Source: Escherichia coli (GTDB lineage: Bacteria > Pseudomonadota > Gammaproteobacteria > Enterobacterales > Enterobacteriaceae). From it: a DNA stretch of 64,000 nucleotides. Below, piece by piece: positions 1 to 7,757 of this stretch. The position numbers and the translations under genes are program-made. Numbering within the stretch: the stretch's first letter is position 1; the number at the start of each line of letters is the position of its first letter. The notes below the pieces were generated by a model. It was not told the origin of the DNA and ran no database searches. It saw only the letters and a list, made by a program, of their open reading frames with translations. The DNA lies in the NCBI RefSeq assembly GCF_024700885.2, contig NZ_CP117016.1. One strand, 5' to 3'.

Positions 1-1076
1 GGAATATCCCGGCTCCCCAGATCATTCTCCTGTTCGTTCGGGATGTCATCCGGGAAGCCCCGCGTCTGATACCAGCGCAGGTAGACAGCAATTTTATTAC
101 GGTAATGTTCTGCCGTTCTTTCCGGCATCACATCCAGCAGGAACATCGCATAGCTGCGCCAGGTATGATGGGCCGGTTTTGATATACGTTTACGCAGGGC
201 AAAATAGGCACCGCTTTCATTGGCATAAAGCGCCCCGCTGGCAGCGCCTGACACCCGCTCACACATCCTGGCCCAGGTTTCCGGCTCCAGAACATGGTAA
301 AGCCACAGTCCCTTACGTTGTTCAGGACCAAAAGGTTCACAGACACGCATGTTGCGTAACGGTACGCCGGCACGGTACATCAGGTCATACAGGGGATTGT
401 AGATGGCACGGGTTCTGGTGTGATATATCCAGATATCACGAGTTTTCCAGTCATACAGCGGATACATGGTGTAGTAAAACCCTTCAGGCGATGCCGTGGT
501 CCAGGGCTTATCATCGGCGTATCTCAGTTTGCGCTGGGATACCAGTCCCATGAACCGGTTAAGGGACTCATCCGCACGGACACCGGTCAGTACTGCCACA
601 CCACATTTATTGTCTGCAAACCAGGAAGAAAATGCCGGAACAAATTCTTCAAACGTCATGGCATACCGGTAAAAGGGAAAATACGCCATATCTGTAATGG
701 CCCCCTCCGGTGGCTGGCGAACCCACTTCACACCAGACTCCCAGCATATCCACTCCGGCTGAAACTGAGAAACACCGTTTACCGTGGTCAGGGGAAGTGC
801 CACCCAGTAAAAGGTTTCCGTCACATCATGGTACATTTCCCGCATCTTCTGAATATGTTCAATGGTGCACTGGTACTGAGCCTCCCAGTCAATGAACAGT
901 ACAGAGAAACGACGTTTTTTCCTGCGGGCCACATCAGCCAAAAGATGGAAAAGCACGGTGGAATCTTTACCACCGGAAAAAGAGAGACAAACTGATGGAA
1001 ATGTTTCAAAAATCCACTCAATACGAGCAATTGCTGCACGCAGAACATTAGTACAAAGCCAAATTTTGTCTGTCAT
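1..1076 (-). CDS. PAPS-reductase-family PP-loop protein with DUF3440-like C-terminal region (IbrA/YbdN-like); C-terminus runs past window start
   Basis: Minus-strand frame open from ATG (complement of 1074-1076) to position 1; translation MTDKIWLCTNVLRAAIARIEWIFETFPSVCLSFSGGKDSTVLFHLLADVARRKKRRFSVLFIDWEAQ... contains the SGGKDS PP-loop. Absent from ORF track because no stop lies inside the window. Confidence 0.6.
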   Translation of the reverse strand, partial: MTDKIWLCTNVLRAAIARIEWIFETFPSVCLSFSGGKDSTVLFHLLADVARRKKRRFSVLFIDWEAQYQCTIEHIQKMREMYHDVTETFYWVALPLTTVNGVSQFQPEWICWESGVKWVRQPPEGAITDMAYFPFYRYAMTFEEFVPAFSSWFADNKCGVAVLTGVRADESLNRFMGLVSQRKLRYADDKPWTTASPEGFYYTMYPLYDWKTRDIWIYHTRTRAIYNPLYDLMYRAGVPLRNMRVCEPFGPEQRKGLWLYHVLEPETWARMCERVSGAASGALYANESGAYFALRKRISKPAHHTWRSYAMFLLDVMPERTAEHYRNKIAVYLRWYQTRGFPDDIPNEQENDLGSRDI

Positions 1077-1131
1077 TAAATGATCACGCATTACTGAACA
1101 ATATTATCTGCATCCCTTGATATAAAACAAT

Positions 1132-1962
1132 TCATAATTTTTGTATCGAGTTGGCCAACCTTTTTTCATTACCAAATCGAGTTGTGTAATATCTCTCTTC
1201 GATACCATACAGCAAAAGTTTAAGCTCTTCGTCACAAGAAATTTCGAAACAGCCAGTGCCATCATCAAACTTTAATTTTTCAGAGCAATAATCATTTATA
1301 TAAGTTAGCATATTCCCCCTGTCACTTACATCCATTTGGTTTAACGTATCCATCGCTAACGCTATTCTTTTTCTGTTTGGTTTTGAAACATTACATGCTT
1401 TATATTCACCAGAGAGAGCAATAAACGACTCCCCCAGAAACTGTTCAACATCCTGTTCTGTTGCCTCTTTATAAAGAGTATCGATACCATTAAACATGGA
1501 AGAAATGGCTGACAAGGATTTAAATATAAGCGTGTCCTTTGCAGCAAGATATACTGCATCCGGGGTCTGGTTAACAACCAGACGATTCTTCCCGCTCTCT
1601 ATCTTTGCTCTATCACCAAGTTCGATCATTTTTTTCTTGAGATATAATGATGGTGTTACCTTCTGAAAATAAAAGTCACCACTTTGAAATGAAAAAATAA
1701 ATGCTATCTTTGAAAAATATTTTTTAGGCAATTCATCATAATTTTTTGAATCAAACTCATCTTTCAAAAAGGATGGGCAGTATTCCCGTTTACTAAATTC
1801 ACTGAGACTAAACCAGGAATCTTCATCAAGATTATGATCCGGTGCATACGGAACCAATGAACACACTGACAGATCAACCCTTTCAAAAAGGGTATGATCT
1901 GAGACAATCTTAAAATATGGTTTTTTCCTGAGACCTTTTGCTTTAACAAATACATTATCCAT
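1132..1962 (-). CDS. hypothetical cytoplasmic protein, 276 aa, AT-rich gene
   Basis: ORF track 1132..1962; no TM segments; begins 3 bp after the upstream membrane-protein gene; codon usage and AT-richness differ from flanking genes. Confidence 0.5.
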   Translation of the reverse strand: MDNVFVKAKGLRKKPYFKIVSDHTLFERVDLSVCSLVPYAPDHNLDEDSWFSLSEFSKREYCPSFLKDEFDSKNYDELPKKYFSKIAFIFSFQSGDFYFQKVTPSLYLKKKMIELGDRAKIESGKNRLVVNQTPDAVYLAAKDTLIFKSLSAISSMFNGIDTLYKEATEQDVEQFLGESFIALSGEYKACNVSKPNRKRIALAMDTLNQMDVSDRGNMLTYINDYCSEKLKFDDGTGCFEISCDEELKLLLYGIEERYYTTRFGNEKRLANSIQKL

Positions 1963-1964
1963 TC

Positions 1965-2525
1965 TTATTTCCTTTCGATAAAGGTATAGTTATTAATCCT
2001 GAAAGCCATGGGCACTACAATATCTTGCGGTACTTTATACCTATAAGGACTGATAAGAAAAATCGACGCTCCTGTTTTTGTCTTAATATTATAAAACTCA
2101 TACCTGAAAACAAGAAACAAAGGATTGAAATATAAGGCCTGAGATAAAAATGTAAAAATAAACAGCACTCCATAAACAAAGAACAACGCCCCCCAGTTAT
2201 TTATACTCAGGGCAACAAAAAAGTACCCCAGATAACTCGGTAAAAAAGAGTTATTCGCATGCTCAACTGAAATCACCTCACCTTTTTTAAACTCATCTTT
2301 TCCCAGCGCAGCACTAAGCACAAGACTGACTTTAGTCAAAACAACAGGTATTAAAAAATAAAAAAGATACGACCCTACCTGAGGAATACCACTTAACCAC
2401 TGTAAACTCTGTTCATGCTGAAAAAAGTAAAACAACGTATATTTCCTTTGCACCAAAAATATAATTATCAACAAAGAAGTGGCATTGAATGTAAGCAGCA
2501 ATCTAAAAAGGATGTTAATTATCAT
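1965..2525 (-). CDS. hypothetical multi-pass membrane protein, 186 aa
   Basis: ORF track 1965..2525; several hydrophobic stretches (LLIIIFLV, LFYFLIPVVL, FFVALSINNWGALFFVYGVLFIF); AT-rich; tightly coupled to the downstream 276-aa gene. Confidence 0.5.
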   Translation of the reverse strand: MIINILFRLLLTFNATSLLIIIFLVQRKYTLFYFFQHEQSLQWLSGIPQVGSYLFYFLIPVVLTKVSLVLSAALGKDEFKKGEVISVEHANNSFLPSYLGYFFVALSINNWGALFFVYGVLFIFTFLSQALYFNPLFLVFRYEFYNIKTKTGASIFLISPYRYKVPQDIVVPMAFRINNYTFIERK

Positions 2526-2739
2526 GATATCTGGTTCCTGGACATCTAAAAATCATGCGTCATATCACACAATTTGCATTATGAATAACCATAACAATAT
2601 AACTCAGTTATTGCTACCCAAGCCCAGTATTTAAATAACTATACTATCAATGCGTAAGACCACATTAATGCTCCGCTGAAGAAGAGAAGCACTATACTCT
2701 GCAGTGCCTTTAGAAAATTATTCTCCAAAAGATGGAATA

Positions 2740-4107
2740 TCACTTCATGTCCCCTTGCGTCAAAACCCAGTAACGACTCACCAGCTCGACAAGACCATTT
2801 TCCACCTTTTTTTGCTGCTGTTCACTGCTATTCTGGTTACGAACTTCATCATAGCGACGTAACTGCTCTTCTGCCGGGATATGCCGGTTAAAAGCCTGCA
2901 TGATGCCAAACACCTCCGTTTTCAGTTCACTGACCGTCATGTATTTTCCCCGCTGCTCATCCAGACGGTTCAGGCGCTCAGCCAGCTGCTGTAAGCGGGT
3001 CATGCCTTCGTTCCAGCCCGCCATCGCCTCTTCCGGGAGCGCACGACTCCTTACACTCTTCTGCCAGTTATCCACCATTTCCTGAACACGGGGATTGTCG
3101 GGAAAAAGTACCCTCAGTTGCTGCAGCAGCTGCGCACTGCGTTGCAGGTTGTATGCCGGGGGTAGTTCTGCCAGTCGTGTTATCTGCTGACCGGAAAGGG
3201 TTATCCACTCTGACGCATGATTTAGCAGTGAAGGTGTTCTGCTGAGCTGTGTCATCTGGCCTGCTGAAAGCACATCCGGTGGTGGTGTCAGCAACGCCCT
3301 GAGTTGCTGCTCCGCCGGTGATGGCTGTGTCAGAAACTGCCATCCCGGAATGGCCACGCTGACCGCCAGCAATGCCGCACAGACACCAGTTACAAACGGT
3401 TTCAGAAACGTGGGCGGGGATTTCTGAAGGGAATGTGTGTTTTCTTTTCCGCTCTCTGCTTTTGTTTCAGAAACAACATACACCAGACGGGAGTGCGGCA
3501 GGGTCTGATGTTCCTGTACGTCCGGAGCATCAGACCGGAGTGCCTGCGCCGGAAGGGTTACCGGAGACGATACTTCACCCTGCACAGGCTGGTTCTCCAG
3601 GCGGGTGATATATCCCTTCACCATGGCTTCCGGTAAAGCCACTTTACTGCTCTGTTTAAGTTCGTGCCGGGCCAGTGTGTCACTCAGTGCCTTCAGGAAT
3701 GTTTCGGTCTGATACAGCAGGGGCAGGTTGTCACGGTCGTCCGGAGGCATGGCCCGAAGCGTTTTTTGCAGATGGTTGAACAGACCGGTAATAATTTCCA
3801 GCCGGGCGTGGGTATTCAGCGGCCACATCACTGACCAGTGATGCCGGGTCAGCGCCACAATCAGAGCCAGCCCTTCATTCAGACCACTTAACCCTGTTGT
3901 ATGCATCCGGGCGATGGTGTACCAGGATGCCGTCTGTAATTCCACGCCATTGTGTTCATACAGACGCAGGCAGAGTGTTTCCACGTAACGCCAGTCCACA
4001 TCCGGGCGTGCCGGGTGAGTCAGTTTGCTGATTTCATCGCGCAGGGCAGCATAATCCGGTAATGACCGGGGGTCACCACCGGTTTTCAGTTTCACTTCAG
4101 AAGTCAT
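2740..4107 (-). CDS. vasL: T6SS-associated ImpA_N-domain protein (VasL-like)
   Basis: N-terminus MTSEVKLKTGGDPRSLPDYAALRDEISKL... matches the ImpA N-terminal domain pattern; central hydrophobic segment (VTGVCAALLAVSVAIPGW); sits at the end of the T6SS gene string. Confidence 0.6.
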   Translation of the reverse strand: MTSEVKLKTGGDPRSLPDYAALRDEISKLTHPARPDVDWRYVETLCLRLYEHNGVELQTASWYTIARMHTTGLSGLNEGLALIVALTRHHWSVMWPLNTHARLEIITGLFNHLQKTLRAMPPDDRDNLPLLYQTETFLKALSDTLARHELKQSSKVALPEAMVKGYITRLENQPVQGEVSSPVTLPAQALRSDAPDVQEHQTLPHSRLVYVVSETKAESGKENTHSLQKSPPTFLKPFVTGVCAALLAVSVAIPGWQFLTQPSPAEQQLRALLTPPPDVLSAGQMTQLSRTPSLLNHASEWITLSGQQITRLAELPPAYNLQRSAQLLQQLRVLFPDNPRVQEMVDNWQKSVRSRALPEEAMAGWNEGMTRLQQLAERLNRLDEQRGKYMTVSELKTEVFGIMQAFNRHIPAEEQLRRYDEVRNQNSSEQQQKKVENGLVELVSRYWVLTQGDMK

Positions 4108-4161
4108 CGGCAGATTCGGTGTTGCTGTATTAAATCATGATTAACAGTGACGAAAAGAACA

Positions 4162-4470
4162 TCAGTGTGATACCGGTACCCGGGAAAGGTATTCCACCGC
4201 GCGGATAATTGCCGGTGTCACATCCCACCGCCGTTTCAGAACCGGCAACAGCTCATTAAGGTTTCTGATATAACGCTCAGTGAACAGCCGTTGTCCGTCC
4301 CTGGTTAAATGAAAACCTGACTGATTACAGGTAATGGTGATATGACAGGTATCGTTGCCAATATATACGGCTTCCTGGGGTCTGAATCTGACATTCCAGT
4401 ACCAGGAATACGGGGAATGATTAAGATGAAAAAGACGCATCTGAATGTCACTGAATAATGGATTCATCAT
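4162..4470 (-). CDS. hypothetical small protein (~102 aa)
   Basis: ORF track 4162..4572 overlaps the helicase 3' end; internal ATG pair (complement of 4465-4470, MMNPLF...) is the likely start; no clear Shine-Dalgarno. Confidence 0.3.
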   Translation of the reverse strand: MMNPLFSDIQMRLFHLNHSPYSWYWNVRFRPQEAVYIGNDTCHITITCNQSGFHLTRDGQRLFTERYIRNLNELLPVLKRRWDVTPAIIRAVEYLSRVPVSH

Positions 4471-4531
4471 AAATAAAATACACCTGATAATAAAATATAG
4501 TGGAAAACCAGAATAAAGAAATGGTCCGGTA

Positions 4532-6319
<1,788 letters not shown>

Positions 6320-6512
6320 AAACGCACCTTAATCTGTGAACAAAAAAATAATCACCACCGACATCCACGGATGTTATATCGTGGGTATCGCTTTATTCAG
6401 AAATAAAAAACAGAATCATTAACATGACCAGAATACTGTGAACCATGCTGCAGGGTATCTGCAGATATCCCTTCTGTTATATCCGGCCGGGGTAAAATCA
6501 GAACACTGACTG

Positions 6513-7757
6513 TCAGGCAGCTTCATTTTCCGCGTATTCCAGACTCTGCAGGTACTGCAGCGCCGCCGGGTCAGCCACATATTCCACCTGCCCGTGGTGA
6601 CGCTCCACTTCATTAATGATTTTCTCAAGCTTCACGCGGAAAAATTCTTTACGCAGGTTAATCCTGTTAATGCGGTATTTTTCCAGACTGTCATGAAGTG
6701 TTTTTTCCAGCGCAGGCGCATCATCACAGGAAATCATGGCGTGAACATCAAAATCAAACGGAACAGAAGCACCACTTAACTCTTTGACCCTGTCCATGGG
6801 TTCCAGCCGTCGGGTCATGCCAATTTTAAAGACATCCTCACCAAACGAACCAATATTCGAAATGATATAAACATGCCCCTGTTTCGTAAGCTGAGCCATG
6901 GATTTAGCACGTTCATACTGCGCATGCGCTTCCTGAATTTTCTGTTCCAGCTCCAGGCGTTGTTTCTCTAACTCCTCCCTGTGAGCCCCTTCTGCTGCGC
7001 GCAGCGCCTCCTCAATCAGTTTCTGCTGCTCAGCAAGACGCCGTTCTTCCTCTTCCGCTTCCCGCTGGCGCCGTTCAGGTTCATCCTGACGCTCTTTTTC
7101 TTCACGCATCTGACGCTTAAGCTCTGCCTGATATTCCTTCTCTTCCTGCGCTTTTTCCAGCAATGCCACTTTGTCCAGAAACTGTTGCCTGATACTCTCC
7201 CGGTCAGAATTATCTTCCAGGTTAAGAAAGGCTATTTTCTCACTGACAGCAGCGTAAGCCTCTCTTTCCTTACGAAGCTGGTCATATTTGCTTTGCCAGT
7301 TATTAATCGTTACACCAGCCAGCAGAGTCTTCGCCTTAAATTTCCAGGCGGAATCAACAATCCGTTGCATTGCACGGCTGGCCTTCTGTCTGGCGGTATG
7401 AAATTCCTCACGACGTCTGGCCAGTTGCTCCTTTTCCTGTCGTATTCCCCGGGCTATCGCGGCATTGACAGTTTCATTAAAACCCCGCTCTCTCTGAACC
7501 AGCTCTGAAACGGCCTGCTCAAAGGCTGCTGTTTTCTTTCTGAGTCTCCGGTAAATAAAAAAACGAAGTAAAATTGCAAATACAGTAAGCAAACCAAAAA
7601 ACAAACCAATAATACCTGCCGGATTCGATACTGCATCAATAAAGCGCTCATTAAGATTTATCAGCGCCCTGACCGCCACATAAATCCCCCAGAGAATAAC
7701 GCAAACTAAAATCAGGACAAATCCCGCTGCATTATCATCTTTTTTTCCTCCTGCCAT
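6513..7757 (-). CDS. membrane-anchored coiled-coil protein with C-terminal T5orf172/GIY-YIG-like domain (DUF4041-like architecture), 414 aa
   Basis: N-terminal TM helices (FVLILVCVILWGIYV, IIGLFFGLLTVFAILL), long Glu/Arg/Lys-rich coiled-coil region, C-terminal GHVYIISNIGSFGEDVFKIGMTRRLEPMDRVKEL module. Confidence 0.6.
   Translation of the reverse strand: MAGGKKDDNAAGFVLILVCVILWGIYVAVRALINLNERFIDAVSNPAGIIGLFFGLLTVFAILLRFFIYRRLRKKTAAFEQAVSELVQRERGFNETVNAAIARGIRQEKEQLARRREEFHTARQKASRAMQRIVDSAWKFKAKTLLAGVTINNWQSKYDQLRKEREAYAAVSEKIAFLNLEDNSDRESIRQQFLDKVALLEKAQEEKEYQAELKRQMREEKERQDEPERRQREAEEEERRLAEQQKLIEEALRAAEGAHREELEKQRLELEQKIQEAHAQYERAKSMAQLTKQGHVYIISNIGSFGEDVFKIGMTRRLEPMDRVKELSGASVPFDFDVHAMISCDDAPALEKTLHDSLEKYRINRINLRKEFFRVKLEKIINEVERHHGQVEYVADPAALQYLQSLEYAENEAA

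Follow-up and report, generated by a model that had tools for sequence, protein, structure and literature searches.

An ibrA-type PP-loop gene cut by the window edge beside a rare Kiwa cassette on an Escherichia coli genomic island

The window analysed here is a stretch of 64,000 nt of Escherichia coli DNA (contig NZ_CP117016.1), and its left edge cuts through an ibrA-like gene, of which 142 nt including the stop lie beyond position 1. The features found at this end of the window are the following:

1..1091, minus strand: 5' 88 % of an ibrA-like gene (363 codons out of 410), with the start ATG at 1091-1089
1..368, minus strand: DUF3440, beginning at residue 242; a basic domain of helices only, left incomplete by the window edge
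372..1004, minus strand: PAPS-reductase-like adenine-nucleotide alpha-hydrolase domain (PF01507), about residues 30-240
960..977, minus strand: PP-loop SGGKDS, the ATP pyrophosphatase signature, residues 39-44
1050..2781, no strand: variable slot; homology to other ibrA-bearing islands ends at 1049
1132..1962, minus strand: KwaB (Kiwa), 276 aa, PADLOC 2.4e-12
1965..2525, minus strand: KwaA (Kiwa), 186 aa, PADLOC 3e-10

Translation of the minus strand over positions 1-1076 gives 358 codons with zero stops and the motif SFSGGKDS inside, and the gene is missing from the list of complete ORFs because its frame is still open at the left edge. The first-pass annotation had the gene span 1-1076, which needs to be corrected: RefSeq places the start at the ATG at 1091, making 1076 part of codon 6, and the O157:H7 and 28Eco12 orthologues use the aligned ATG as their start and lack a Met opposite 1076. 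Its description of a PP-loop (SGGKDS) PAPS-reductase-like protein with a long C-terminal extension was borne out by Pfam, in which the fragment matched PAPS_reduct (PF01507) at 4.8e-17, next to a sub-threshold PP-loop match. The extension, an extra stretch of about 170 residues after the catalytic domain, is DUF3440 (PF11922; 5.5e-25 for the fragment, 1e-33 for the full-length protein of E. coli 042), in which no recognisable DNA-binding fold was found. When the 042 copy was compared with four orthologues by the Nei-Gojobori method, dN/dS beyond codon 20 was 0.06-0.09 at a synonymous divergence of 0.14-0.77, and ibrA is therefore a real gene under strong purifying selection. Judging from genomes with identical DNA, the gene is probably intact at its source locus; in 042, whose DNA is 99.9 % identical to the window, it is an intact 410-codon CDS (WP_001204642.1).

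Directly upstream of ibrA lies the 276-aa ORF that had already been described as unrelated, and it was indeed seen in the ORF listing. This KwaB ORF and the KwaA ORF are adjacent and co-oriented and thereby represent a Kiwa anti-phage system by the PADLOC definition. Neither of the two ORFs has a Pfam match, and RefSeq labels the pair mostly as 'hypothetical', with 'KwaA family protein' appearing in one record. The earlier remark that the GC content of ibrA exceeds that of the adjacent low-GC pair was confirmed by values of 0.503 for ibrA against 0.351 for the KwaB ORF and 0.339 for the KwaA ORF, the whole window being at 0.51. A promoter and terminator scan of positions 1-2900 returned counts no higher than those of shuffled sequences and no hit in the gap between KwaB and ibrA.

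Over positions 1-6400 the window matches E. coli MLI114 at 100 % identity and 042, 55989 and others at 99.9 %. Its remainder corresponds to the 042 island, on which cadCBA, a CP4-like element, ag43 and the sci-1 T6SS (with tle1/tli1) are found. In 042, ibrA is followed on one strand by ibrB, a PerC-family regulator gene and two hypothetical genes. As such, ibrA is the first gene of a conserved ibrA-ibrB-perC-hypothetical block carried on E. coli genomic islands, and the island that carries the block here is the well-studied pheU-type island of EAEC 042/55989, on which it lies between the two T6SS clusters. What precedes the block is variable, as homology to other genomes ends at window positions 1025-1049, within the first ibrA codons (within the first 14 for an end at 1049). 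In 28Eco12 homology resumes at 2782 and the slot is taken up by another segment of 967 bp carrying a single 214-aa gene, in O157:H7 it is filled by a Mokosh-like helicase gene, and in MS16-3 ibrAB are found on a quite different island. PD-Lambda-1 and NERD-UvrD were also seen near the E. coli defence-cassette slot. Among 5426 complete E. coli genomes, 2108 carry ibrA-like DNA (at least 80 % identical) and 26 carry the Kiwa segment, and the Kiwa pair was therefore acquired separately. The separate acquisition proposed in the first-pass annotation is thus well supported: the Kiwa cassette entered a variable site that directly precedes the 5' end of ibrA, and it does not form one system with ibrAB.

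Full-length IbrA, taken from 042, shares 58 % identity with YbdN of K-12 over 402 aa, that is over its whole length, 93 % with the O157:H7 orthologue and 90.5 % with the annotated IbrA of Escherichia phage PhiR5_2. The exact 042/55989 protein is named 'Immunoglobulin-binding regulator' in UniRef (B7LFS5_ECO55), and homologues appear as 'Co-activator of prophage gene expression IbrA' in their source records, so the assignment to the IbrA/YbdN family stands. Every testable feature of that family is present, namely the PP-loop domain, DUF3440, full-length similarity and the partner described below. The copy is an ordinary, catalogued E. coli ibrA-type gene that is already contained in RefSeq and UniRef, and nothing about it is unusual except for the cut by the window edge and the rare Kiwa cassette upstream. 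A search of 1.84 billion representatives (E ≤ 1e-3) returned 1846 clusters (50 % identity) matching IbrA. We aligned 81 full-length homologues whose identity to the query ranges from 28 to 80 %. Among them, the SGGKDS loop is 93-99 % conserved, and at least 90 % conservation is also seen for D68, E70, R172, E175, S176, D214, W215 and D219, which are among the conserved residues of the catalytic domain, and for G170, R179, Y235, R249 and R279. No invariant Cys column was found in this alignment: the most frequent Cys, at column 98, occurs in 80 % of the family but is replaced by Ala in the E. coli clade, and a hidden catalytic Cys shifting between columns 98 and 116 was sought as well, giving mixed patterns and no clean covariation.

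The first-pass annotation had stated that such proteins are in E. coli normally encoded with a ParB-like partner, and that the partner must here lie beyond the window or be absent. Looking leftward in the nearly identical 042 DNA revealed a ParB-like gene, encoding a 214-aa 'IbrB-like domain-containing protein', which overlaps the 3' end of ibrA by 16 nt and, transferred to window coordinates, would start 127 nt left of position 1; the partner thus in all likelihood lies beyond the window, its apparent lack being an artefact of the window cut. As the partner in E. coli is the downstream overlapping gene, the unrelated upstream ORF never argued against its presence. IbrB is 56 % identical to YbdM of K-12 over its full length. 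It consists of a ParB/Srx-fold N-terminal domain and a C-terminal HTH-like, helix-rich segment, and it matches Pfam ParB_N weakly, below threshold (0.0021), while its VDGFHR motif aligns over the GERR nucleotide-binding box of a solved ParB. Furthermore, it falls in a PHROG annotated as 'ParB-like partition protein' (8.6e-85). The motifs NDYNPN, VDGFHR and RHNRARG and the C-terminal segment LGMDxxEVLRLKQISGL are kept across phyla. PDB sequence searches with IbrA and IbrB returned marginal PP-loop and ParB matches and nothing more.

The pairing of ibrA with ibrB is near-universal. Seventy-five of 80 IMG/VR viral contigs carry a co-oriented IbrB-like gene no more than about 1.2 kb from the ibrA-like gene, placed downstream and overlapping in 26 cases, directly upstream in 23 and one small gene away in 26. 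An IbrB-like gene likewise adjoins the ibrA-like gene in Escherichia phage PhiR5_2, Streptococcus phage Pika and Flavobacterium phage FCL-2 and neighbours it in all five divergent metagenomic representatives (IbrA homologues of 32-45 % identity). Among the other loci examined, roughly one in three shares the downstream overlapping arrangement of E. coli. The other top neighbours in the viral contigs are an SNF2-like helicase (18 loci), which often directly precedes the pair in phage genomes, and a ResIII/DEAD helicase (9 loci), with YqaJ exonuclease, DnaB and AAA_24 recurring as well. As the pair mostly resides in phage replication and recombination modules, a DNA-directed role rather than one in sulfur metabolism is indicated. 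Such a role is also suggested by the basic DUF3440 tail and the position of DGFHR over GERR, in addition to the helicase and exonuclease neighbours. It is worth mentioning that the IbrA/IbrB (YbdN/YbdM) family, which couples a PP-loop enzyme firmly to a ParB-fold protein, is very large, being present in hundreds of phages and in some 39 % of the complete genomes of E. coli.

As a whole, these findings are, with good probability, best explained by an ibrA-family gene that works with its IbrB partner as an ATP-dependent switch, next to an independent Kiwa system. The proposal is based on fold, motifs and gene context. IbrA is likely an ATP-dependent adenylyl-transfer or ATP-pyrophosphatase enzyme; AMP transfer is predicted because its fold and PP-loop are shared with FMN adenylyltransferase, CysD and CysH. 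As no Cys is conserved family-wide, IbrA would not be a thiol-dependent reductase, nor would it be an Fe-S sulfurtransferase such as DndC or TtuA. Its PP-loop would bind ATP and AMP would be passed to an acceptor, for which a small ligand, IbrB itself and nucleic acid are candidates. IbrB, for its part, may be an NTP-dependent DNA-binding partner by virtue of the DGFHR at the ParB GERR position, and the two proteins together would act on mobile-element DNA and thereby switch on silent horizontally acquired genes. Switching of this kind would fit the activation of prophage eib genes in trans that ibrA plus ibrB reportedly achieve in ECOR-9 (Sandt et al. 2002, J Bacteriol 184:3640, as described in PMC7649339 and also cited in PMC6024878), the sole genetic finding known to us for the family. 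In STEC, epithelial contact co-induces the adjacent ibrB and perC together with the hypothetical gene that follows (PMC7649339). ParB-fold proteins of mobile elements are known as NTP-dependent switches (PMC10770331, PMC12704722), and the ParB-like VirB is a CTP-dependent anti-silencer (PMC10770331, PMC10676424). A 2025 survey of the ParB-CTPase fold mentions neither IbrB nor YbdM, and the literature searched yielded neither biochemical nor structural work on IbrA, IbrB, YbdN, YbdM or DUF3440.

Two other readings of the gene would either turn it into a metabolic enzyme or attach it to its neighbour. The RefSeq product name 'phosphoadenosine phosphosulfate reductase' suggests an assimilatory PAPS/APS reductase of the canonical CysH type or else an 'auxiliary metabolic gene' of sulfur metabolism, and besides this name the Pfam PAPS_reduct match and the fold comparison may be cited in its favour. 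With an AlphaFold2 model of IbrA (mean pLDDT 92), the best Foldseek match of the N-terminal 240 or so residues was the PAPS domain of human FAD synthase (7e-7), followed by CysH, APS reductase and CysD, these four matches lying at about 1e-6 to 1e-5, and then by TtuA and FMN adenylyltransferase. However, the solved reductases share 13-19 % sequence identity with IbrA, and this in the N-terminal 240 residues alone, and IbrA scores only 35.6 bits against a cut-off of 154 with NF002537, 34.5 against 254 with TIGR02057 and 29.6 against 165 with TIGR00434, the fragment reaching no NCBIfam model at all. The catalytic motif ECGLH (ECG[LIV]H) is absent from IbrA, as is CxxC, and no Cys is conserved across the 81 homologues, while the protein carries DUF3440, is paired with a ParB-fold protein and is encoded on islands and phages instead of in a cys operon. 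The sub-cut-off scores and the missing motif effectively exclude a CysH, which we regard as hardly conceivable and which the first-pass annotation had named as the result that would speak against it; the RefSeq label should not be taken as sulfur metabolism. Very improbable, too, is that ibrA serves the adjacent Kiwa system as an accessory gene. The KwaB stop and the ibrA start are on one strand and just 40 nt apart, in a gap that holds no predicted promoter or terminator and would allow for such a connection, but ibrA-like DNA is found in 2108 genomes and the Kiwa segment in 26, the block follows quite other genes in 28Eco12, O157:H7 and MS16-3, GC contents differ (0.50 vs 0.34-0.35), and the PADLOC models define Kiwa as the two genes kwaA and kwaB. 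The genome counts (2108 vs 26) effectively exclude this reading.

More weight is due to the idea that IbrA and IbrB act together in the covalent modification of nucleic acid, as a minimal pair related to DndC-DndB, although we consider it unlikely. IbrB would load on or nick the DNA, and IbrA would adenylylate a backbone phosphate or base position for group exchange, leaving a mark that alters expression or shields mobile-element DNA from restriction in an anti-defence or epigenetic manner. The domain pair matches that of the ParB-like DndB and the PAPS-reductase-like DndC (PMC11662687), IbrA gives weak matches to the DndC and BrxP profiles, and the nearest non-self PHROG of IbrB is a family of ParB-domain DNA methyltransferases. 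Location speaks for it as well, since the pair is common in phage replication and recombination modules, often right after the SNF2-like helicase, and the E. coli block borders the defence-cassette slot with Kiwa here and the Mokosh-like helicase in O157:H7. Residence in phage replication modules fits covalent modification just as well as a switch, and against the switch it may be held that transcription factors of the classical type have no need of an ATP pyrophosphatase at their side. On the other hand, DndC requires a [4Fe-4S] cluster ligated by Cys280 (PMC11662687), for which IbrA offers no family-wide Cys, the block has no cysteine desulfurase, DndD/E or restriction partner, no system in PADLOC claims IbrA or IbrB, and no modified base is reported for ibrAB-carrying strains in the literature searched. 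An identification as DndC itself was rejected, as the DndC model TIGR03183 yields 15.4 bits where 290 are required, no Cys is conserved and the neighbours are ibrB, perC and hypothetical genes. BrxP of type 4 BREX was rejected, too: it is characterised by a full-length match with a DUF4007 fusion and by pglZ, brxC and brxL as neighbours, whereas the PADLOC match reached 27.8 bits over residues 14-93 alone and no BREX genes are nearby. In a wider form of this idea, prompted by the near-universal pairing, the phage replication modules next to SNF2-like helicases and the position at the edge of a defence slot, the two enzymes might conceivably constitute a mobile-element system that marks DNA, RNA or its own ParB-like clamp by ATP-dependent adenylylation, a proposal that we put forward tentatively. 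If true, the pair would be an anti-restriction, epigenetic or anti-silencing device of phages and islands, and the 'regulator' phenotype would be a by-product.

Compared with known systems, the pair discussed here as an ATP-dependent switch resembles, by description, IbrA/IbrB of ECOR-9, which are likewise encoded by two overlapping genes with matching domains; the difference is that the island of the window strain has the Kiwa cassette upstream. The island block of STEC has perC after ibrAB, as is the case in 042. YbdN and YbdM of K-12 (b0602/b0601) are encoded by overlapping genes in the same order and with the same Pfam domains as ibrAB, but ybdNM belongs to the core genome, next to citR and dsbG, whereas the ibrA of the window is an island-borne paralogue with perC downstream. 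The K-12 ybdNM operon is repressed by CitR/YbdO (PMC9068703).

With DndC/DndB, the pair has in common a PAPS-reductase-like PP-loop ATPase and a ParB/Srx-fold protein on mobile DNA, but DndC works with DndA/IscS, DndD and DndE (PMC11662687), partners that IbrA does not have. The N-terminal 240 residues of IbrA share fold and PP-loop with CysH, APS reductase, CysD and FMN adenylyltransferase, while IbrA differs from the CysH-like clade in having no catalytic C-terminal Cys, an extra DUF3440, a ParB-fold partner and no metabolic operon. IbrB, finally, is reminiscent of VirB from Shigella and of other orphan regulators with the ParB-CTPase fold (PMC10770331, PMC10676424, PMC12704722), with a ParB N-terminal-type domain, an Arg-containing motif at the GERR position, a C-terminal part rich in helices and a location on mobile DNA. 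Unlike VirB, it is coupled to a PP-loop enzyme and has a ParB_N score below threshold, but like VirB it is genetically linked to the activation of horizontally acquired genes.

The Kiwa, NERD-UvrD and PD-Lambda-1 genes lying near ibrA, the PAPS-reductase-like gene cut by the left edge of the window, form a small defence island that is wedged between the two T6SS clusters. These genes and their neighbours are listed here:

1132-2525, minus strand: Kiwa pair, KwaB (276 aa) and KwaA (186 aa), low GC
2740-4107, minus strand: uninterrupted TssA-like ORF, 455 aa (ImpA_N, 2.4e-17; VasL, 1e-37)
4162-4572: small ORF of unknown function, 136 aa, overlapping the 3' end of the NERD-UvrD gene
4532-6319, minus strand: NERD and UvrD-helicase protein, 595 aa (PADLOC candidate defence family C3a187, 1e-139)
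6513-7757, minus strand: GIY-YIG family protein, 414 aa (PD-Lambda-1, PADLOC, 5e-88)

Among 5426 complete E. coli genomes, just 26 carry the Kiwa pair, which here occupies a variable slot (1050-2781) between ibrA and the TssA-like gene. One cassette boundary falls within the first 14 codons of ibrA, and the other reaches some 40 nt into the TssA-like gene from its 3' end, an arrangement which suggests that the cassette is exchanged via recombination within these flanking genes. The 455-aa ORF itself may represent an intact orphan TssA-like gene that has been mis-annotated.

It is worth adding how these genes are named in RefSeq. Both kwaA and kwaB are labelled hypothetical in most records, the 595-aa NERD-UvrD protein carries the product name "3'-5' exonuclease", and the TssA-like ORF is broken up in the annotation of strain 042 into three pseudogene fragments marked "incomplete", of which one bears the name POTRA.

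Beyond the window, ibrA and its ParB-fold partner gene ibrB were also encountered in viruses. Viral contigs of predominantly aquatic origin (L046 2749-3999, L050 2721-3848, L055, L064, L086 and about 18 further IMG/VR loci) form a group with the reversed order ibrB-ibrA, and their IbrB features a conserved C-terminal extension of about 170 aa with the Cys/His motifs WECHKAGFY, WKHSCEHYLTN and NRIAWLGQA; neither a Pfam nor a PHROG match was obtained for this extension. Phages and prophages of Gram-positive hosts (L007 4824-7765, L012-L014 3772-6816, L015 3086-6273) have a gene for an SNF2-like helicase that overlaps the ibrA start, and the resulting helicase-IbrA-IbrB triple is located past the lysis genes or within the replication module; the helicase was detected at 18 of the 80 viral loci. 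Escherichia phage PhiR5_2, a 61.5-kb E. coli phage record, encodes ibrA/ibrB (57883-59696) at about 90% protein identity to the gene of the window and adjoined by two antirepressor genes. This phage could possibly serve as a vehicle carrying the ibrA/ibrB block from island to island.

When full-length IbrA homologues were aligned, the column of residue 98 held Cys in 80% of the family (motif YWxCLP) and Ala in the enterobacterial clade, including YbdN and the ibrA product of the window, and no other Cys column of this alignment cleanly compensates for the Ala.

Downstream of ibrB, left of the window (9828-11151 in L001), a PerC-family regulator is followed by a pair of hypothetical genes whose products, of 214 and 107 aa, gave no match in Pfam, PHROG, NCBIfam or PADLOC. 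This block is also present in O157:H7 and 28Eco12, and part of it has been reported to be co-induced with ibrB in STEC (PMC7649339).
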